Below are positions 3,303 through 17,073 of a stretch of DNA of 64,000 nt, piece after piece; positions within the stretch are counted from its first letter, which is position 1; every line of letters starts with the position of its first letter. Source of the stretch: a virus (Duplodnaviria > Caudoviricetes). Made by a program: the position numbers and the translations under genes. The DNA is taken from IMG/VR virus record IMGVR_UViG_3300028854_000488; one strand, given 5' to 3'. A model generated the notes under the pieces. That model made no database searches, was not told where the DNA came from, and saw only the letters and a list, made by a program, of their open reading frames with translations.

Positions 3303-6290
3303 ATGTCTAAAATAGATGAAAAATATATAGAATCATTAGGTACATTCACCCATGCATTAGAGGAAATAGTAGAATTATTGAAAGAGCAGCAAAAAACTGG
3401 TAAGTCAGATGTAGTCAATGATTTTTTAAAAACTCCTATGGATAATTTGAGCCATGTTGTTAAAGATTTACAGAAAATTACTGAGCAAGGATTCAAAAAT
3501 GTTAGAGATGATAATCAAAAAATATTACAAAAAATAGATGGTATAAAGAAGCAAAAAGAATCTGGAATGTTTGAACATATAGAAGATCCTAAAAACAAAA
3601 ACAAAATTGTTGATGGTATCAAAGTTGTTGTTTTAATTGCAGCAGGTGTTTTAGCATTAGGATTAGCATTTAAAATAATAGGGAAAGTAGATTTTCTTTC
3701 TGTTATTGCATTATCCGCAGCGATGGTTGGTATGTCTATTGCTTATAATAAGATTGCTGATATAAAAAATTTAAAATATACTAACGTACTTTTAATATCT
3801 GCTATTATGCCATTAATGGCGATTGGATTAGCGTTATCTGGATATATATTAAAAAGTATGCCTGAATTTTCAATAATGCAATCAATATCTATTATGCTTA
3901 TTAGTACTGCAATGGGATTAGCAACTTATTTTATAATGAAATCAATTTCTAAGATTAGTATATCATCAATAAAAATGATACCATTACTTCCTTTGATTTT
4001 ACCAATGATAGCTTGGGGTATTGTAAAATCTTCACAAATTTTAAAGAATGTAGAGAAGATGTCATTTGCTCAAGTATTATCAGTAGGTATGATAGGATTG
4101 GCTTTGGGCGTAGCAACATTTGGTATTTCAATTGCATTGAAAGGATTAAAAAATGTAACATATAAAGAAATGTTGGCATTGCCATTTATGATACCATTAA
4201 TTGCTGGAGGTATTGTTTTGGCTAGTGAAATATTTAAAGGTTTTATTCCAATCAGTAATCCATTGGATTTATTAATTGGTAGTGCTGTTATTGGATTATC
4301 ATTATTGTTTTTTACTCCTGCAATTTATTTTTTAGGTAAAATGAAATTCGCTGATGTTCTTACTGGAGTCCTTATGATTTTACCTATGGCTTTTGCAATT
4401 ACACAATCTAGTATAATTTTTAGTAAATTTATACCTCTTAAAGATCCATTAAATATAGTTTTAAGTACATTAGCAATGGGATTGTCTATATTGATTTTTA
4501 CTCCTGCAATTTATGTTTTAGGTAAAATGTCTATCGAAGATTTACTTATTGGTATAGGTGGAAGTATATTAACTTCTATCGCAATTGTTGTTATAGCTAA
4601 TATATTTTCATCATTACCTACTAAAATGATTACTCCAGATTTTATGTGGACCTTATCTGCTGGATTAGCAGTGGGTGGATTCGCACTTATTGCTACTGTG
4701 GTTGGATTATTTGCTGGAACTGATCCATTTTTTTGGATTGGTCTTGCTGCAATTTTAGCTGTTGCAGGTACAATTGTAATAGTTTCTTATATGTTACAAG
4801 CAGGAAATTATACTAAATATCCGCCGTTAGATTGGGCATTAGGTGTTGGAGGATCATTAATAGCATTTAGTTCAGCTATGGTTATTGCATCAGTTGGAGG
4901 TATTGCTAGTGCAATATCAAAAGTATTTACAGGTGATGAAGATCCTTTAATTAAAATTGCTAATACTATGGTTGCAGTATCTTGGCTTTTACAAAACGGA
5001 AAATGGGAAAGTGGATATCCGAAATTAGAGTGGGCATTAGGAGTAGGTACTGCTTTTACAATGTTTGCTGCTGCATATGTTGCAATTACAGGATTACAAG
5101 GAATTAATAGAGTATTTTCATTTTTAACCCTACATAAATCTCAAAGTTTTAATGACTTTGTAATATCAGCGGCAAATGCTATGAAAACAGCAAATGCAGA
5201 ATTGTCAGGAGTTAATTGGGGAGCAGCAGGTAGTTATCCATCTAAGGATTATGCTGATGGAGTTGGTGGACTATTAAAATCATTTGCAGAAACATATGCA
5301 GTAGTATCTTTGGTAGGATCAAGTATATTTAGTATAAATCCTGAAAGTTTTGAAGTATTTGTTAAAAATGCTGCAAATTCTATGCTTGTAGCAAAAACAA
5401 TATTAGATTCTACAAATTGGACTAATGCTGGACATCCTACTAAAGAATATTCAGATGGAATTGGTAGCTTTCTTATATCAATGGCAACAGCATATTCTAA
5501 AGTTAATGACATTGGAATTATGCGTATTCTTGCTTCATTACTTGATGTTGGAGGTAAAATGTCAATTACAGATTTTGTAAGAGAATCTTCAACTGCTATT
5601 GTTTCTGCGTCTAATATATTATCAAAAGGAAATTTTACTAATATTCCAGATGCTACATATTTAACTAATTTTAATAATTTTTTAGTTTCAATGGCAAAAA
5701 ATATTAATGATTTTAATGTAAATATTAATGATTTAATGAATTTTACTAATAATTTAGGTATGTTATCTCCATCATTAATGTTATTATCAAATGCAACACA
5801 AAATCCTTTATCAGATCTTTATATACAAGGTTTTGATAAATTGGTTAAAATATTAAATAATATGCCAGACAAAAGTATTCAAATACATAAATTGGCAGAT
5901 TCTTTTGTCGATCTTTCTAATTCATTGAAAGATATCACAACTTTTGATAATTTATCAAAAGTATCCGCTAGCGTTGTTTTATTGAGTGCAGTTGATGATG
6001 CAAAATTACAAGTAATTCTAGATAAATTGAAAGATAATCAAGATACAATAAAAACAATTTATGGTAATTCATCAGCAACTCCAAATTTAGTTCAAACTAT
6101 TGGTAAAGCTTTTACTTCATTATTCGGAGACGATAAAATAGAAGCTAATAAAAAAGCAAATGAGCCAATTGTTGTTACAACTACAATTGAGCCTCAATTT
6201 TATACTGGTATAACAGAAATGATAAGTTTATTAAAAGGAATTAAAAATTCATTAGATAAACCAACACCAGCACCAAGTTTTCATAGATAA
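3303..6290 (+). CDS. Tape-measure-like protein with many hydrophobic segments
   Basis: 995 aa; long Ala/Gly/Ile/Leu-rich hydrophobic repeats (PL..L..S..G..L..FTPA.Y.LGKM) flanked by coiled-coil ends. Confidence 0.55.
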   Translation: MSKIDEKYIESLGTFTHALEEIVELLKEQQKTGKSDVVNDFLKTPMDNLSHVVKDLQKITEQGFKNVRDDNQKILQKIDGIKKQKESGMFEHIEDPKNKNKIVDGIKVVVLIAAGVLALGLAFKIIGKVDFLSVIALSAAMVGMSIAYNKIADIKNLKYTNVLLISAIMPLMAIGLALSGYILKSMPEFSIMQSISIMLISTAMGLATYFIMKSISKISISSIKMIPLLPLILPMIAWGIVKSSQILKNVEKMSFAQVLSVGMIGLALGVATFGISIALKGLKNVTYKEMLALPFMIPLIAGGIVLASEIFKGFIPISNPLDLLIGSAVIGLSLLFFTPAIYFLGKMKFADVLTGVLMILPMAFAITQSSIIFSKFIPLKDPLNIVLSTLAMGLSILIFTPAIYVLGKMSIEDLLIGIGGSILTSIAIVVIANIFSSLPTKMITPDFMWTLSAGLAVGGFALIATVVGLFAGTDPFFWIGLAAILAVAGTIVIVSYMLQAGNYTKYPPLDWALGVGGSLIAFSSAMVIASVGGIASAISKVFTGDEDPLIKIANTMVAVSWLLQNGKWESGYPKLEWALGVGTAFTMFAAAYVAITGLQGINRVFSFLTLHKSQSFNDFVISAANAMKTANAELSGVNWGAAGSYPSKDYADGVGGLLKSFAETYAVVSLVGSSIFSINPESFEVFVKNAANSMLVAKTILDSTNWTNAGHPTKEYSDGIGSFLISMATAYSKVNDIGIMRILASLLDVGGKMSITDFVRESSTAIVSASNILSKGNFTNIPDATYLTNFNNFLVSMAKNINDFNVNINDLMNFTNNLGMLSPSLMLLSNATQNPLSDLYIQGFDKLVKILNNMPDKSIQIHKLADSFVDLSNSLKDITTFDNLSKVSASVVLLSAVDDAKLQVILDKLKDNQDTIKTIYGNSSATPNLVQTIGKAFTSLFGDDKIEANKKANEPIVVTTTIEPQFYTGITEMISLLKGIKNSLDKPTPAPSFHR

Positions 6291-11879: not shown

Positions 11880-11959
11880 AACCTACGATGGGATTCAAAC
11901 CCACATTTACAACTTCAATTACAGTTACTTGATTCGTAGTCAAGACTGGTTACATAGGC
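11880..11959 (-). tRNA. tRNA-Arg(ACG)-like gene lacking a D-arm, long variable arm
   Basis: Acceptor GCCTATG/CGTAGGT, anticodon arm CTTGA-CTACGAA-TCAAG, T-arm GTGGG-TTTGAAT-CCCAT; only ACCAGT where the D-arm should be. Confidence 0.6.
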
Positions 11960-12582
11960 ATGTTATCGTATTTATCATTTTTTTCAATTAATTTTTGAAT
12001 TTCATTTTTAAAACAATCTCTTGCTTTTTCATTTTCATTTTTATACATATTTATAAGCCTGATATATTCTGGTATAAAATAAATGTCAACTTGCCCATAT
12101 CCTAATCCACCACAAGTTAATTCTCCAATACAGTGTTTAAAGAATATACCTTTAGTCATATATGAAGATCCAAAAATTTCTATATTAAATTTATTATCAT
12201 CATAATCATTAAATTCTTGCTCACAATCATATTCACATTTTAATAATAACATTTTATCATAGTTATTATTGTAAGGTTTTCTTGTTTTATCTGGATTTTT
12301 TAAATAAATAAATTTTTTATTATTTAAAAATGCTAATTTTAATTTTCTTTTTAACTTTATTTTTTTATTTTCTGGGAGCCAACGATATTCGACCAAATCT
12401 GTACATTTAAAATCAATTGTTAATTTAATTCCAAATATAAATTTAGATAATATTGAAAATTCAGAATAATTTTGTGGTTTAGGAATATCTAATTCAAAAT
12501 TACAATGATCACATTTTAGTATAGTTTTTATAAATTCAGAATGTATTCCTATATTATTATATCTAGCCATTATTTTACTCAA
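11950..12582 (-). CDS. Hypothetical protein
   Basis: 210-aa ORF; last codons overlap the 5' end of the tRNA-Arg-like gene. Confidence 0.65.
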   Translation of the reverse strand: MSKIMARYNNIGIHSEFIKTILKCDHCNFELDIPKPQNYSEFSILSKFIFGIKLTIDFKCTDLVEYRWLPENKKIKLKRKLKLAFLNNKKFIYLKNPDKTRKPYNNNYDKMLLLKCEYDCEQEFNDYDDNKFNIEIFGSSYMTKGIFFKHCIGELTCGGLGYGQVDIYFIPEYIRLINMYKNENEKARDCFKNEIQKLIEKNDKYDNMPM

Positions 12583-13054
12583 TAATATTGTTAATATTTA
12601 TTAATTTTTCTTTCATAGAACATCTATATTTATATTTTTTAACTCCTTCTATTTTATCATCTAAACACTGATCAATTAAATATTCAGATTGACGAATAAC
12701 ATATTCCTTATTACAATTTTCTTTATTATCTCCATAATGACTAGTATCAAAACCTATCATCCAATAATTATTGAATTTTTCATAATTATCTAATGTTACA
12801 TCTCCATCAATTGATAATCCGTCAATCCATTTTAAAAATGAATCTGAATTAAAAAGTTGTCCGTATGTTAATCCACCATGAACTCTTATATCATTTATAT
12901 CATCATATGGTTTTTTATATAATGGATGATTAGTAGGTAATAATATATAACCATTTCCCCATCCAAATTCTAACATAGAAGGATATAAACTAAATAATGA
13001 TAAATGTTTAACTAAATAATTTTCAATTACTAATGTGTAAATTCCGTATTTCAT
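12575..13054 (-). CDS. Conserved phage hypothetical protein (VHGGLTY...WxxGFDxxH type)
   Basis: GWGNGY, VHGGLTY and WMIGFDTSH motifs; ATG 13054 follows the promoter at 13073-13104. Confidence 0.65.
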   Translation of the reverse strand: MKYGIYTLVIENYLVKHLSLFSLYPSMLEFGWGNGYILLPTNHPLYKKPYDDINDIRVHGGLTYGQLFNSDSFLKWIDGLSIDGDVTLDNYEKFNNYWMIGFDTSHYGDNKENCNKEYVIRQSEYLIDQCLDDKIEGVKKYKYRCSMKEKLININNIIE

Positions 13055-13072
13055 TTTATATTTTATTAAAAA

Positions 13073-13104
13073 CAAAGATACTATTTTTTTATTAATTAAC
13101 CAAA
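13073..13104 (-). promoter_or_regulatory. Bacteroidota-type housekeeping sigma promoter
   Basis: TTTG-N20-TATCTTTG on the minus strand. Confidence 0.75.
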
Positions 13105-13123
13105 TAAATAATTAAAATATTTT

Positions 13124-13747
13124 TTAACTTTTTCCTGATATATTATCAACATTTTCTTGAATTTTATCAACATTTTCTTGTATATCATCAGTGCGAGTTT
13201 TTACGAAATTATCATTCTCTTTTACATTCTCTGTTATGTTATTAACATTTTTTTGTATATTATCAATATCAGTTTGAATATTTTTATCATTTTTGTCAAC
13301 ATTTTCCTGAATATCATCAACATTTTCCTGAATATCATCAACATTCTTTTTTATTTTATTATCTGTTTTTTCAACATCAATTTTTATATCATCAACATCT
13401 TTTTCGATATAGTCAACATCTTTTTCAATATCATCAACTTCAGTTTTAATATTTTCTGTCATTCCTTCTATTTTTTCAGATAATTCTTCAATTTTTTTAA
13501 TTATACTATCAGTCCTTTCTCCACTTATTTTAGCAATATAACCCAAAACTGGTAACGCTACACCTTGAAAAAATACGGAAACTATATATTGCATCCATGC
13601 AACTGGTCCTGAAGGCTGACTGAAAAATAATGGTATTATAACTAATAATGTTATTATCCAAAACATAGCCATACTAGATAATGAATTTGATAATATAACT
13701 GCTAAACCTTCTTGTAATGATTCAAATTTTTGTAACAATTTCTTCAT
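13124..13747 (-). CDS. Two-TM membrane protein with heptad coiled-coil repeats
   Basis: Two hydrophobic helices then (N)VDDIQEN repeats. Confidence 0.7.
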   Translation of the reverse strand: MKKLLQKFESLQEGLAVILSNSLSSMAMFWIITLLVIIPLFFSQPSGPVAWMQYIVSVFFQGVALPVLGYIAKISGERTDSIIKKIEELSEKIEGMTENIKTEVDDIEKDVDYIEKDVDDIKIDVEKTDNKIKKNVDDIQENVDDIQENVDKNDKNIQTDIDNIQKNVNNITENVKENDNFVKTRTDDIQENVDKIQENVDNISGKS

Positions 13748-13802
13748 ACTACTTTTTATCTTTATATATAAAAAATGTATAATAAATTATTTGTAAAATT
13801 AG

Positions 13803-13885
13803 TGGACTGAGAGGGATTCGAACCCACAAGCTCCGAAGAGAACGCATTTACAGTGCGGCGAGCCAACCAACTGCTCAATCAATCC
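13803..13885 (-). tRNA. tRNA-Tyr(GTA)
   Basis: Cloverleaf; loop CT-GTA-AA; long variable arm; GGTTCGAATCC. Confidence 0.92.
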
Positions 13886-13890
13886 ATTTG

Positions 13891-13963
13891 TACTCCCAGT
13901 AGGCATTGAACCTACATGACGTGCTTATAAGGCGCGCATACTTACCAATTATATGATAGGAGC
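13891..13963 (-). tRNA. tRNA-Ile(TAT)
   Basis: Acceptor GCTCCTA/TGGGAGT; loop CT-TAT-AA; GGTTCAATGCC. Confidence 0.85.
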
Positions 13964-13972
13964 ATTATTTAG

Positions 13973-14046
13973 TAGTCTCGGTGAGACTTGAACTCACGAT
14001 TTATTGCTTATCAGGCAATTGCTCTAACCAACTGAACTACAAGACT
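13973..14046 (-). tRNA. tRNA-Ile(GAT)
   Basis: ATTGC-CTGATAA-GCAAT; GAGTTCAAGTCTC. Confidence 0.92.
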
Positions 14047-14113
14047 ATATAAGTTTATTTTTATTAATCATAACATACTATTAGTATGATAATAGTCACA
14101 ATTATAAACTATG

Positions 14114-14183
14114 TACCGAATATGATGTTCGAAATCATTTGGATTTCCTTATGAGAGAAATCTCTTTTCCACTAAGCTTCGGC
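14114..14183 (-). tRNA. tRNA-Met(CAT), degenerate
   Basis: TTTCT-CTCATAA-GGAAA; T-arm ATGAT-TTCGAAC-ATCAT; weak D-arm and acceptor mismatch. Confidence 0.55.
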
Positions 14184-14196
14184 ATTATGTTTATTG

Positions 14197-14270
14197 AGGC
14201 CAAGGTGGGACTCGAACCCACACAATATAGTTTTGCAGACTATCCCCTTATTCCATTCGGGCACTCGGTC
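14197..14270 (-). tRNA. tRNA-Cys(GCA)
   Basis: ATAGT-CTGCAAA-ACTAT; GTGGGTTCGAGTCCCAC; U discriminator. Confidence 0.92.
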
Positions 14271-14278
14271 ATTTTTTG

Positions 14279-14350
14279 CGGGAGTGAGGAATCACGATAT
14301 CCTAACCTACTGGTTAACAGCCAGTTGCTCTGCCTTTGAGCTACATTCCC
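14279..14350 (-). tRNA. tRNA-Asn(GTT), atypical T-arm
   Basis: ACTGG-CTGTTAA-CCAGT; T region AGGATATCGTGATTCCT lacks TTC. Confidence 0.8.
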
Positions 14351-14361
14351 ATATATTTTTG

Positions 14362-14436
14362 CTGGAATAGTTGGATTCGAACCAATAACCCTCACTTTAA
14401 CAAAGTGCCGCTCTAACCGTTAAGAGCTACATTCCA
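14362..14436 (-). tRNA. tRNA-Asn(GTT), second copy
   Basis: CACT-TTGTTAA-AGTG; TTGGTTCGAATCCAA. Confidence 0.85.
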
Positions 14437-14444
14437 ATAATAAG

Positions 14445-14519
14445 CGGACTATAACGGTTACGGTCCGTTAATTTTACTTGAGTGACGGTCAAGTTCTCCA
14501 CCAAGGAGCCTAATAATCC
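14445..14519 (-). tRNA. tRNA-Asp(GTC), atypical
   Basis: CTTGA-CCGTCAC-TCAAG (C at position 33); T-arm AACGG-ACCGTAA-CCGTT. Confidence 0.65.
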
Positions 14520-14525
14520 ATTTTT

Positions 14526-14600
14526 TGGTACTGATTAAGAGAGTTGAACTCTTCTTGGCAGGTTGAAAACCTGTAGTCCTAACCGATAGACGAAACCAGC
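14526..14600 (-). tRNA. tRNA-Glu(TTC), CCA encoded
   Basis: CAGG-TTTTCAA-CCTG; GAGTTCAACTC; ends ACCA. Confidence 0.9.
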
Positions 14601-14614
14601 ATTAATTTATTTTG

Positions 14615-14760
14615 TGAGATGGAGGGGATTCGAACCAATTGTAATAACTTCTGTGCTTTTCATGTACACTTATTACACATATCTTAATACGTTTATTTAC
14701 CTCATTCCTTAGACACCTGGGTCCATCCCAGGCTGGCTTCACCACAACCATAGCCACCTC
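14615..14760 (-). ncRNA. 146-nt tRNA-like RNA with a large insertion
   Basis: Acceptor GAGGTGG/CCATCTC-A, hairpin CCTGG-GATGGAC-CCAGG, about 75 nt insert containing a TGTAATAA/TTATTACA stem, GGTTCGAATCC. Confidence 0.5.
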
Positions 14761-14785
14761 ATATTTATTTATTCATTATCCAGTA

Positions 14786-14797
14786 TTTCAAAGAGCA
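14786..14797 (-). promoter_or_regulatory. boxA-like antitermination site
   Basis: TGCTCTTTGAAA, similar to rrn boxA TGCTCTTTAACA, directly 5' of the tRNA run. Confidence 0.55.
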
Positions 14798-14800
14798 TTT

Positions 14801-14847
14801 AAAAACAAAAAACTCAGTTCTTATTTTTAAGAACTGAGTTTTTTTAT
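14801..14847 (-). terminator. Attenuator terminator 1 ahead of the tRNA array
   Basis: AACTCAGTTCTT-AAAAAT-AAGAACTGAGTT followed by TTTTGTTTTT. Confidence 0.85.
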
Positions 14848-14871
14848 TATTCACATAATAATTTTTTTAAC

Positions 14872-15003
14872 TTATCCAGTTCTTCGTACAATATTTTCAT
14901 CATCATTAATATAATCATTATTCATATTAATACATATCTCTTCCATATTGTAATTAATGTTACAATTGCGATAAATGCGATATATGTTATTCATGTTATT
15001 CAT
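14872..15003 (-). CDS. Putative 43-aa attenuator leader peptide
   Basis: MNNMNNIYRIYRNCNINYNMEEICINMNNDYINDDENIVRRTG; A-rich initiation region; last codons complementary to the 5' arm of the terminator. Confidence 0.7.
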   Translation of the reverse strand: MNNMNNIYRIYRNCNINYNMEEICINMNNDYINDDENIVRRTG

Positions 15004-15035
15004 AATGTTTACTTTTTTAATTTATTGTTTTTTGT

Positions 15036-15725
15036 TTATTTAAAATTCTTTATTATTCCTGATATTGTGGATTTTGAACAATCTAATAACTTAGAAATGT
15101 CTATTTGTCTTACTCCATCAATATATAATTTTTTAACAACTTCTTTATCTATTTTACTAGACATTTTTTTAAATTTTAATGATTTGTTTTTTATTAGTTC
15201 ATAATTATTATTAAAAAAATCAACATCAGAATGTTCAATTGTATGACAATTTGCACATAATATTTGACATTTATTTAATTCTTCTATTATTTCTATTCTT
15301 ATCTCTTCTATGGAAGAAATATTTTCTTTGACAAATCTAAATTCAAAATTTTTATCTTTTAAATGATGAAAATGTAATGCACTTGTTGTATTATTATATC
15401 CACATTTTTCACATCCTTTTACATTTTTATATTCTAAGAATATTTTTTTATCATTTGTTCTATATGTCTTAGGTTTATCATGAAACTCATAATGACAATT
15501 TTGACATAATAACTCACATTTTTCAACTTCTTTGAATATATTTTTCCAATTTTTACCCCACATACGAGATAATCTATATTCTTTATCTTCAGAATTCGTA
15601 TGATGAAAACATAATTTAAAAAAATTAGTTTCTCCACATTTTTTACATTTACCTCCTAAAAAATTTATTGCTTTTAATTTTTTAGCAAATCTTAAAATTT
15701 TAGTACTATACATTTTATCTGTCAT
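15036..15725 (-). CDS. Double HNH endonuclease with C-terminal HTH, inside the tRNA array
   Basis: Two CxxCG...FHH...C.LLC.NCH units; GVRQIDISKLLDCSKSTISG HTH. Confidence 0.8.
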   Translation of the reverse strand: MTDKMYSTKILRFAKKLKAINFLGGKCKKCGETNFFKLCFHHTNSEDKEYRLSRMWGKNWKNIFKEVEKCELLCQNCHYEFHDKPKTYRTNDKKIFLEYKNVKGCEKCGYNNTTSALHFHHLKDKNFEFRFVKENISSIEEIRIEIIEELNKCQILCANCHTIEHSDVDFFNNNYELIKNKSLKFKKMSSKIDKEVVKKLYIDGVRQIDISKLLDCSKSTISGIIKNFK

Positions 15726-15801
15726 AGTTCAACTTTTTATTTTATATATAAATATAAAATAATGAACTTTTTATAAAATGTATAATTTTTTATTTATTTG
15801 T

Positions 15802-15870
15802 TGCGTGGAGGTAGATTCGAACTCCTACTTCAGCTTATGAGACTGATATGTTACCATTACAATATCCCGC
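15802..15870 (-). tRNA. tRNA-Met(CAT), imperfect acceptor stem
   Basis: TCAGT-CTCATAA-GCTGA; GTTCGAATC. Confidence 0.65.
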
Positions 15871-15884
15871 ATTTTTTATTATTG

Positions 15885-15955
15885 TTGCGATCGTAGGATT
15901 CGGACCTCGTTTCAGGGTTATGAGCCCTATATGCTGCCATTGCATCACCATCGCG
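15885..15955 (-). tRNA. Initiator-type tRNA-fMet(CAT)
   Basis: TAGGG-CTCATAA-CCCTG with three consecutive G-C pairs; C1-A72 mismatch. Confidence 0.7.
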
Positions 15956-15962
15956 ATATATT

Positions 15963-16352
15963 TTAATTTTTTTCTTTATCAATTTTTTTATAGAGTTTTT
16001 TAGCAATTTCTTTTGCTTTTGAACTCATACCTTTTTCTGTTTTAGGAACTTCTTTATCGTCAATTTTGATTTTATCAGCAAACATTATAAATTTTTCAGT
16101 TCTATCAGATTTTCTTTTCAGTTCATCGTAATTTTCTTGAATTTTATTTACTACTTTTACTGACTCATCAATTTTTTTTTCTTTACTTTTAATTTCGTTA
16201 TAATAATTTTGAATATTTATTATTTCTTCTTTAACGCTTTGATGTCTTTCAACATTTTTTTCTTTTTTACGTTTTTTTTCTTCTTTTATATTTTGAAGTT
16301 TACTATTTTCTATTTTTTTATCTTCTAATAATTTCTTAACAAATTTATTCAT
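15963..16352 (-). CDS. Lys/Glu-rich coiled-coil hypothetical protein
   Basis: ATG 16352 (MNKFVKK) lies just after terminator 2; the track start at 16367 is inside the hairpin. Confidence 0.6.
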   Translation of the reverse strand: MNKFVKKLLEDKKIENSKLQNIKEEKKRKKEKNVERHQSVKEEIINIQNYYNEIKSKEKKIDESVKVVNKIQENYDELKRKSDRTEKFIMFADKIKIDDKEVPKTEKGMSSKAKEIAKKLYKKIDKEKN

Positions 16353-16385
16353 AAAAAAACCAGTCATTTTTTAATGACTGGTTTT
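16353..16385 (-). terminator. Attenuator terminator 2
   Basis: AAAACCAGTCATT-AAAA-AATGACTGGTTTTTTT. Confidence 0.8.
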
Positions 16386-16414
16386 GTATAATTTTAGGCA
16401 TATAAGCCTGAATT

Positions 16415-16492
16415 TTAAATTCCAGTCAATTGTGATGTATCATCATTAATGATATTTTCGTTACACATTTCTATATATAAATTTTGATACAT
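16415..16492 (-). CDS. Putative 25-aa attenuator leader peptide 2
   Basis: MYQNLYIEMCNENIINDDTSQLTGI; TGACTGG near its end is complementary to terminator arm CCAGTCA. Confidence 0.55.
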   Translation of the reverse strand: MYQNLYIEMCNENIINDDTSQLTGI

Positions 16493-16576
16493 TTTGTTTT
16501 CTTTTTTATTTTTTTTTTAGTCTTTCTTATATATAATAGAAAAAAAGTCATTTTTTTCTATTTTTAATTTGTAGTA

Positions 16577-16608
16577 CAAAAGTAATACAAAGTTTTTAAT
16601 CTACCAAA
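16577..16608 (-). promoter_or_regulatory. Bacteroidota-type promoter driving leader 2 and the tRNA region
   Basis: TTTG-N20-TACTTTTG. Confidence 0.75.
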
Positions 16609-16686
16609 TGTTTTTAAACTTATTTAAAAAATAACCTTTCTTTTCAGTGAAGAAAAAAAAGGTTTAGTTTTTATACTTTTTAATTT

Positions 16687-16866
16687 TTACAACGAAACTT
16701 CTTCTTTTTTCATTGTATAAAATGTAAGTCCACCTTTTTCTTTTCCAACACCAGGTACAGTCATAAAATTATTAAAATTTACACTTTTTTTTACTGAATG
16801 ATATTCATTTTTAGTCAAAAAGAAAACTTTTGCTGATTTAGATGAATTTTCTGAATTTGTTGTCAT
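16687..16866 (-). CDS. 59-aa hypothetical protein
   Basis: Manual translation MTTNSENSSKSAKVFFLTKNEY...KKEEVSL; follows the promoter at 16915-16946. Confidence 0.5.
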   Translation of the reverse strand: MTTNSENSSKSAKVFFLTKNEYHSVKKSVNFNNFMTVPGVGKEKGGLTFYTMKKEEVSL

Positions 16867-16914
16867 AATAGTTGAATTTAAATTGTTTAAATGTTTGTTG
16901 TTTTAATTACACTA

Positions 16915-16946
16915 CAAATGTACTTCGAATACTTTTATGTACCAAA
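16915..16946 (-). promoter_or_regulatory. Bacteroidota-type promoter
   Basis: TTTG-N20-TACATTTG. Confidence 0.75.
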
Positions 16947-17073
16947 TATTTAATTTGTTTTTATTATTCTTTATAATAATTTGTATATATTTCACATTTA
17001 GAATATAATTAAACTATAAAAATACTAATAATTAAAAAAATATAATAATATATACTCAAAAATAATATAGATT

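Follow-up and report, generated by a model that had tools for sequence, protein, structure and literature searches.

A probable leader-peptide attenuator ahead of a tRNA gene array in a huge phage

What sets the transcription of the tRNA genes that a phage carries? The roles of phage tRNAs have been debated for decades, the proposals being, among others, that they serve codon compensation, stand in for degraded host tRNAs or help to evade defences that target tRNAs (PMC10264068, PMC11555353), and the control of their genes has hardly been addressed so far. The question is raised by a 64,000-nucleotide (nt) stretch of DNA from a virus of the Caudoviricetes, IMG/VR record IMGVR_UViG_3300028854_000488, hereafter referred to as the window. 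On its minus strand, a 43-codon open reading frame (ORF), leader 1, is followed by a strong terminator, terminator 1, and by an array of tRNA genes (Table 1). An earlier reading of the sequence, the original prediction, took this arrangement for an attenuator whose leader codons mirror the downstream tRNAs. The present analysis supports the attenuator interpretation: leader 1 and terminator 1 probably act together as a ribosome-dependent attenuator, through which decoding speed would act back on the transcription of the phage tRNAs.

The composition of leader 1 is an extreme outlier of the window. Residues 1-38 are exclusively Asn, Met, Ile, Tyr, Arg, Cys, Glu and Asp; over its full length, the peptide comprises 13 Asn, seven Ile, four each of Met, Tyr and Arg, three each of Glu and Asp and two Cys, and then Val, Thr and Gly. 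The Arg codons are CGC, CGC, CGA and AGA, and both Ile7 and Ile23 are encoded by ATA. The ORF, its codon usage and the makeup of the 38 residues were thus found as the original prediction had described them. When all stop-free 38-codon windows in the six frames of the whole 64,000 nt were compared (n=21,942), leader 1 scored 38/38 for the eight residues named by the earlier reader, while the runner-up region scored 31/38. For the set restricted to the amino acids of the tRNAs (Glu, Asp, Asn, Cys, Met, Ile and Tyr), leader 1 reached 36/38 against a mean of 15.4 (standard deviation 4.3). By comparison, Lys, Leu, Ser and Phe account for 11, 7.7, 7.5 and 5.3% of the long ORFs in the window, and together for 31%.

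The downstream tRNAs, encoded on the same strand, mirror most of this set. Genes for tRNA-Glu, two tRNA-Asn, tRNA-Cys, tRNA-Ile(GAU), tRNA-Ile(UAU) and tRNA-Tyr were detected by default ARAGORN and by Rfam. An Asp(GUC) tRNA (14519-14444) was called by relaxed ARAGORN only, and a CAU tRNA (14183-14114) gave a weak Rfam match (22.5 bits, under the cut-off of 29), its loop CTCATAA being read by eye. The original prediction held that all eight amino acids of the leader were matched in this way. Judged from these gene calls, seven of them appear to be matched firmly and Arg only doubtfully. ARAGORN, run at all sensible thresholds, found no Arg(ACG) tRNA in the window, and neither did Rfam nor BLAST with the tRNA-Arg of a relative (L003), in which a canonical tRNA-Arg(ACG) sits at 4278-4350, the corresponding place. 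The window has a non-canonical candidate at 11959-11880 (minus strand), D-armless, with the loop CT-ACG-AA and a 23-nt variable region. This candidate lies 1.85 kb past tRNA-Tyr, beyond three protein genes and a promoter motif, and overlaps the stop of an ORF at 11950-12582.

Between leader and array, the RNA offers two competing structures. The strong terminator and its complement in the last codons of the ORF, as originally claimed, are both real, with AAGAACTGG pairing to TCAGTTCTT of the 5' arm of terminator 1 through eight Watson-Crick pairs and one G-U. The number of complements of at least 8 nt to the 5' arm that chance would place in a given 30-nt zone is ~0.005 per module. In the nascent RNA, before the 3' arm has been made, the predicted minimum-energy fold is the antiterminator (-10.6 kcal/mol), which is built of three nested helices: AAGAACUG with CAGUUCUU, AGUU with AACU, and a 7-bp hairpin with a GUGA loop. 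The original prediction had proposed folding with and without the leader end masked; in the predicted folds, a ribosome footprint masked at the stop codon removes the antiterminator, whereas one positioned with its A site at codon 35 does not disturb it. The module 1 region also folds better than shuffled sequences (z = -4.3). Terminator-like sites are enriched in the neighbourhood, with seven in 12500-17000, terminator 1 among them, compared to 0.9 in shuffles. As a control, the 29 terminator-like hairpins of the window were scanned for upstream complements of at least 7 nt within 100 nt, pure A/T words excluded. Matches were returned for five of the 29, namely terminator 1, a second terminator described below (terminator 2), A/T-rich low-complexity words (16664-16633; 54423) and a gene end at 32792-32755. 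The last, the third such complementarity, was set aside, as here an ordinary gene, for a protein of 485 amino acids (aa), ends.

Relatives of the module were found in peat, bog, lake sediment and similar metagenomes. The exact terminator 1 sequence occurs in seven IMG/VR contigs of up to 330 kb, and contigs from a protein search, together with pattern scans, yielded 13 distinct DNA versions of the module of ORF, GNRA hairpin and terminator. Every version lies directly before an array beginning Tyr/Glu/Asp/Asn. The sampled family is narrow: degenerate peptide patterns matched only six metagenome and seven viral contigs, and the upstream 134-aa protein, used as a query, recovered only the same close relatives. 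No relative of leader 1 came up in the phage GenBank collection; huge phages (LR7565xx, Lak) and others matched the window there only through the HNH gene or through single tRNAs. Among RNA data sets, only two shared sequence words with the locus, both from bovine gut and with 4% of the words.

Leader 1 is conserved as an ORF in these relatives. Ten peptide variants, of 35, 38, 43 or 44 residues, were recovered when proteins were searched with the ORF, and in 13/13 DNA variants the frame is open without stops, each indel is a multiple of three and the stop position is unchanged. Minimal changes within the family comprise 11 synonymous and 18 non-synonymous ones (neutral expectation, 16% synonymous), and in residues 10-25 four synonymous changes stand beside one non-synonymous change. 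The ORF is also repeatedly called by gene callers. From the in-frame indels and the synonymous excess, we infer that leader 1 is translated. The deletion variants have lost 5-9 residues, and every one of them retains the Asn-Asp-Asp (NDD) block and its spacing to the antiterminator strand. The control codons of leader 1 are more likely to be this Ile-Asn-Asp-Asp(-Glu-Asn-Ile) block, 4-5 codons upstream of the antiterminator strand, as the spacing pattern suggests.

Conservation extends to the RNA structures. In the GNRA hairpin between leader and terminator, one pair has changed on both sides, being A-U in five variants and G-C in three, and the loop remains GUGA or GUAA. The antiterminator pairing of module 1 is invariant except for a sole variable base on the leader strand, which switches a G-U pair to A-U. 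The terminator 1 stem is invariant as well, its loop alone varying. The complementarity on which the original prediction relied is therefore maintained, and in the second module described next, part of the variants change both strands together.

The window contains a paralogous module 1.4 kb upstream of the first (16608-16353), in which a promoter motif, a 5' untranslated region (UTR), a leader, a hairpin and a terminator follow in that order; the promoter motif is itself preceded by the terminator of the gene upstream. Leader 2 can be aligned to leader 1 over residues 10-43 of the latter, and both contain YRN, EExC.N, I(N)DD and, close to the stop, T(G/E). The Ile-Asn-Asp-Asp block is separated from the antiterminator strand by 4-5 codons in leader 1 and leader 2 alike. 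Nine variants of leader 2 differ by in-frame indels and by nine synonymous and nine non-synonymous minimal changes, the neutral expectation being 18% synonymous. The module 2 region is more diverged among relatives than module 1 (75-83% identity). Terminator 2 differs in sequence from terminator 1, yet the end of leader 2 complements its 5' arm, and the antiterminator is again the predicted fold of the nascent RNA. This antiterminator has eight invariant pairs and one position that varies, at which two variants have G/C/G (in leader, 5' arm and 3' arm, respectively) and four have A/T/A. Within AATTGACTG, synonymous sites are frozen, while the adjacent Thr and Ser codons vary synonymously. For terminator 2 itself, two stem pairs covary among the nine variants, and the observed score was reached in 0/500 shuffles. 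The first gene past terminator 2 encodes a 129-aa protein for which no Pfam family was matched.

A further leader with different codons was found before different tRNA genes. The relative G001 (330 kb; 46% complete according to CheckV) carries module 1 at 92.6% identity and has 16 tRNA matches, including a separate cluster of four tRNA-Gln genes. Directly upstream of this cluster is a 17-codon ORF with five consecutive Gln codons, whose spacing to the pairing strand is the same as that of the Ile-Asn-Asp-Asp blocks. The cassette (L043, 1868-2014) offers a series of alternative pairings, of the Gln codons (segment 0) with segment 1, and of segments 1:2, 2:3 (+U7), 3:4 and 4:5 (+U6), and only ~12 nt separate the last T tract from the first tRNA-Gln. 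In these modelled pairings, the Gln cassette has the complete classical logic: the untranslated leader is predicted to stop transcription, the fully translated leader to stop it as well, and a ribosome stalled on Gln to allow read-through. Six further contigs contain the cassette; as far as their sequence reaches, tRNA-Gln genes always follow it, and its second terminator shows one compensatory change. Leader composition thus tracks tRNA content, a relation that the original prediction had proposed to test. Loss of the leader or of its complementarity in relatives, and a composition unrelated to tRNA content, were the outcomes it had named as speaking against an attenuator, and the comparison gave the opposite of each.

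The transcription unit can be traced from its upstream end. The motif TTTG-...-TAnnTTTG is the consensus of the Bacteroidetes sigma-A factor (PMC7366714). With a spacer of N19-21, it occurs 15 times in the window, often reading TTTGGTA/T, compared to 3.7 expected, and 0/100 shuffles reached as high a count. This enrichment supports a Bacteroidota host and transcription by the host RNA polymerase. One such motif, conserved in relatives, stands ahead of the 5' UTR of module 2, where an A/U-rich hairpin is retained in nine variants, and it is the proposed start of the unit. On the minus strand between 16577 and 13104, no match to the motif was found. In two relatives (L018 and L022), the T tract and the start of the first tRNA are ~10-15 nt apart, so there is no room for a promoter of the array.

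Just 3' of terminator 1 stands TGCTCTTTGAAA, the single match to this word in the whole window, which we take, as a lead only, to resemble the boxA of E. coli rrn operons. By this analogy, it may load Nus factors on read-through transcripts. The related word GYTCTTTRAAA is present in 9/11 variants with sequence past terminator 1 and absent in two.

Together, these features suggest how the tRNA operon of this huge peat-soil phage, with its probable Bacteroidota host, could be controlled by two attenuators in series, of which leader 1 and terminator 1 would be the second. Transcription from the motif at 16608-16577 would pass terminator 2, gated by leader 2, and then terminator 1 before reaching the array. 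As the 5' arm of terminator 1 emerges, the leader end (AAGAACUG plus AGUU) would pair with it around the GNRA hairpin and block the terminator; the switch would depend on the leader-end antiterminator stretch AAGAACTG. A ribosome that reaches the UAA codon would cover the antiterminator strand, whereupon the terminator would form and transcription halt. By contrast, a ribosome delayed at Asn, Ile, Asp, Glu, Tyr, Cys or Met codons, most likely at the Ile-Asn-Asp-Asp block, would leave the strand free and allow the polymerase to continue. Read-through transcripts would then contain the boxA-like TGCTCTTTGAAA directly ahead of the first RNA gene. The outcome would be negative feedback: slow decoding of the matching codons would turn tRNA production on, and an adequate supply would turn it off. 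The kinetic competition and the identity of the sensed signal are what we infer here; what the genomes show directly is how the module is built, that it is conserved, and that it has a paralogous copy and a Gln counterpart. In Flavobacterium, leader-peptide attenuation has been reported to be likely ahead of amino-acid operons (PMC9723704).

Table 1 Positions of the features around the candidate attenuators in the 64,000-nt window
Feature	Position	Strand	Description
Promoter motif TTTG-N20-TACTTTTG	16608-16577	minus	Bacteroidota-type sigma-A; proposed start of transcription unit
5'-UTR hairpin	16561-16536	minus	11-bp A/U-rich stem, loop TGAC; between promoter motif and leader 2
Leader 2	16492-16415	minus	25-codon ORF, Ile-Asn-Asp-Asp at codons 15-18
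Antiterminator strand 2, TGACTGG	16428-16422	minus	Complement of CCAGTCA in terminator 2 5' arm
Intervening hairpin 2, AGGC/GCCT	16409-16396	minus	Paired in 9/9 variants, one C-G changed to U-G
Terminator 2	16385-16353 (stem to 16356)	minus	13-bp stem; T tract abuts ATG of next gene
129-aa protein gene	16352-15963	minus	First gene past terminator 2
Two tRNA-Met(CAU) genes	15955-15802	minus	Upstream of leader 1; Rfam 41.3 and 35 bits, relaxed ARAGORN
HNH-like gene, C-terminal HTH	15725-15036	minus	Between tRNA-Met pair and leader 1
Leader 1 ORF	15003-14872	minus	43 codons, ATG to TAA
Ile-Asn-Asp-Asp, codons 32-35 of leader 1	14910-14899	minus	Proposed control codons (putative role)
Antiterminator strand 1, AAGAACTGG	14884-14876	minus	Within leader 1 codons 40-43
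Intervening GNRA hairpin 1	14861-14845	minus	7-bp stem, loop GTGA (GTAA in L018)
Terminator 1	stem 14844-14807, T tract to 14801	minus	17-bp stem, 4-nt loop
boxA-like word TGCTCTTTGAAA	14797-14786	minus	Just 3' of terminator 1; overlaps promoter-like match 14803-14775
Putatively gated tRNA array	14760-13802	minus	tRNA-like RNA, Glu, Asp, Asn, Asn, Cys, CAU (weak), Ile(GAU), Ile(UAU), Tyr
147-nt tRNA-like RNA at array head	14760-14614	minus	7-bp acceptor stem GAGGTGG/CCATCTC

Several observations weigh against an attenuator, or against parts of the proposed mechanism. The antiterminator and terminator stem of module 1 are invariant in the relatives found, and the pairing is not provable there by covariation; in module 2, 3/9 variants have an A-C mismatch at the position that covaries, and the antiterminator helix as a whole does not beat shuffles. 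Complementarity also arises by chance, as the ordinary terminator at 32792-32755 has a 7-nt upstream complement. The finished terminator 1 is predicted at about -24 kcal/mol and is thus much stabler than the antiterminator at -10.6 kcal/mol, so, as in trp, the switch has to work kinetically. Nor is the composition rule strict, because the leaders of relatives carry Lys, Ser or Thr near the N-terminus without matching tRNAs, and the substitutions within the leader 1 family do not visibly keep to the residue set. Core residues 10-25 are conserved as a sequence, and the peptide could have a function of its own. Finally, a promoter-like match, TTTAAA-N17-GATAAT, lies at 14803-14775 just past terminator 1 and is retained in most variants; the array might also be transcribed independently, from this match. 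The box is absent in L018 and L022 and is not of the motif type enriched in the window.

These points can be assembled into other explanations of the locus. Leader 1 could be an ordinary small gene with an operon-end terminator, the array having its own promoter at 14803-14775 and the composition being a by-product of AT-rich, Asn/Ile-rich coding. A conserved peptide core with a synonymous excess would be expected of such a gene, in several relatives the ORF starts 4-12 nt after a protein gene or overlaps it, like a last cistron, and the promoter-like box follows terminator 1 in most variants. However, besides departing from the enriched motif and missing from two relatives, that box is also boxA-like, and we consider an ordinary gene unlikely, as it would leave unexplained why Lys, Leu, Phe and Ser are absent from 38 residues in a proteome consisting of them to 31%, why the ORF end complements the terminator in two paralogous modules, and why a Gln leader precedes Gln tRNAs. 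An improbable alternative is that the same terminator is controlled by nascent-peptide arrest in the manner of TnaC or SecM, in response to a ligand or state and not to shortage of the cognate tRNAs. Residues 10-25 and the pattern YRN..EExC.N..I.DD..T(G/E), conserved in leaders 1 and 2, exceed what codon sensing needs; yet the relatives sampled are close, and this conservation may reflect descent. Moreover, the deletions of 5-9 residues that spare the NDD block and its spacing argue against arrest, the sister cassette relies on a plain run of five Gln codons, and no known arrest motif was recognised in the leader.

The ORF might also be untranslated, its frame incidental to a structured RNA (part of the tRNA precursor, with a role in processing, stability or factor binding) or to a DNA site. 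The better-than-shuffled folding (z = -4.3), the compensatory change in the GNRA hairpin and a palindrome within the ORF, ATTGTAA(T)-N4-6-(A)TTACAAT, are all compatible with such an element. Against it, the frame has stayed open in 13/13 variants despite AT-rich DNA, both paralogous ORFs show multiples-of-three indels and a synonymous excess, gene callers repeatedly predict the ORF, and no Rfam family was matched; an untranslated element is accordingly very hard to credit. None of the three alternatives accounts for the two-module design and the Gln cassette together.

If leader 1 and terminator 1 form an attenuator, they share their main traits with trpL, hisL, pheL and leuL: a short ORF with control codons, a terminator before the genes and, as predicted for leader 1, a ribosome-dependent alternative pairing. 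The signal in trpL-type attenuators is the decoding rate, set by the supply of charged tRNA, and the same is proposed here. The Gln cassette of G001 resembles them most fully, showing multi-segment logic in which the untranslated control codons pair with the next segment. Module 1 differs from trp in having no anti-antiterminator, and therefore its untranslated leader should read through, whereas trp terminates. Targets differ as well, since trpL-type attenuators control biosynthetic enzymes, while here phage tRNA genes lie behind terminator 1, and the gene for the 129-aa protein and two tRNA-Met genes behind terminator 2. The leaders of ilvGMEDA (Ile, Leu and Val) and thr (Thr and Ile) have mixed codons, and shortage of any of these amino acids relieves termination. 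Leader 1 likewise mixes several amino acids in one leader, but extends to as many as seven, corresponding to seven kinds of tRNA, with its codons spread over 38 positions and not in a short run. The pheM leader of pheST attenuates an aminoacyl-tRNA synthetase operon, that is, a translation component serving the sensed codon; its target is a bacterial protein gene, in contrast to the phage tRNA genes here.

T-box riboswitches also convert tRNA status into terminator read-through, but they bind uncharged tRNA without translation, whereas here the ORF would be the sensor. In 12500-16500, a search for T-box or curated leader families in Rfam at E values up to 1 returned only tRNAs and two chance-level matches. 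The likeness to rrn-type boxA/Nus control, in which a boxA-like word also heads a stable-RNA operon, is one of sequence resemblance only. Full-text literature searches, which covered few subscription journals, turned up no description of tRNA genes, in phage or cell, under the control of a leader-peptide attenuator. As a mechanism, leader-peptide attenuation is known; what is new is the tRNA-gene target, the viral carrier and the breadth of about seven amino acids.

The surroundings of module 1 are more variable than the module. In the window, an HNH-like gene separates leader 1 from the tRNA-Met pair (Pfam HTH_23, 4.9e-5; HNH, 0.002; both under curated cut-offs). It is missing from L001-L007, where tRNA-Met and leader 1 are ~35 nt apart, and it looks like a mobile insertion outside the switch. 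Across versions, the upstream neighbour of module 1 is tRNA-Met (at ~35 nt), an HNH gene or its remnant, or one of several unrelated genes, of 92-94, 129, 188 (DUF6036) and 223 aa, which end 4-12 nt before the ATG or overlap it. Because this neighbour differs, module 1 can be regarded as a conserved unit whose preceding slot collects insertions, and the slot looks like an insertion hot spot.

At the head of the array, the 147-nt tRNA-like RNA carries ~75 nt of inserted sequence; its T loop reads GGTTCGAATCC, and the loop of its CCTGGG/CCCAGG hairpin is non-canonical. Neither default ARAGORN nor Rfam called it, and it is also present in L025 and L033, with a differing loop. Long array tRNAs were reported by ARAGORN in L002, L004, L005 and other relatives, with lengths of 88-89 nt for Asn, 86 for Glu, 88 for Met and 82 for Cys. 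These unusual lengths suggest insertions or introns in phage tRNA genes.

Other tRNA clusters among the relatives are organised differently. In L044, L052, L053 and L055, no convincing cassette of leader and terminator was seen; these contigs have pairs of long (85-100 nt) type-II-like tRNA genes behind two small conserved genes (65-73 aa). In L054 (960-1090; G004, ~31.3 kb), a tRNA with a CTA anticodon, of the amber suppressor type, lies 12 nt past a terminator; the end of a protein ORF forms the 5' arm of this terminator, and the TAA stop falls in its loop. This arrangement may be a translation-dependent gate of another design, and the CTA tRNA hints at TAG recoding in this clade.

It could be speculated that the signal is linked to anticodon nucleases, as the original prediction had proposed for host tRNA depletion or cleavage. 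The two serial leaders would then be an infection-time sensor of tRNA damage (by anticodon nucleases and the like) that switches on replacement tRNAs once Asn, Asp, Ile, Glu, Tyr, Cys or Met codons are decoded more slowly, with tandem gating and the boxA-like element sharpening the response, and huge-phage arrays in general would be codon-matched, self-tuning cassettes; we regard this wider proposal as unlikely. If the attenuator itself is true, the phage would gauge the decoding speed of the very codons that its tRNAs serve and tune tRNA transcription accordingly, which would be direct evidence that phage tRNAs relieve decoding limits. The leader would be a compact, programmable sensor of codon speed, and the question becomes testable by a reporter with swapped leader codons. 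Attenuation would thereby extend from genes for making or charging amino acids to tRNA genes, to viruses and to Bacteroidota-type hosts.

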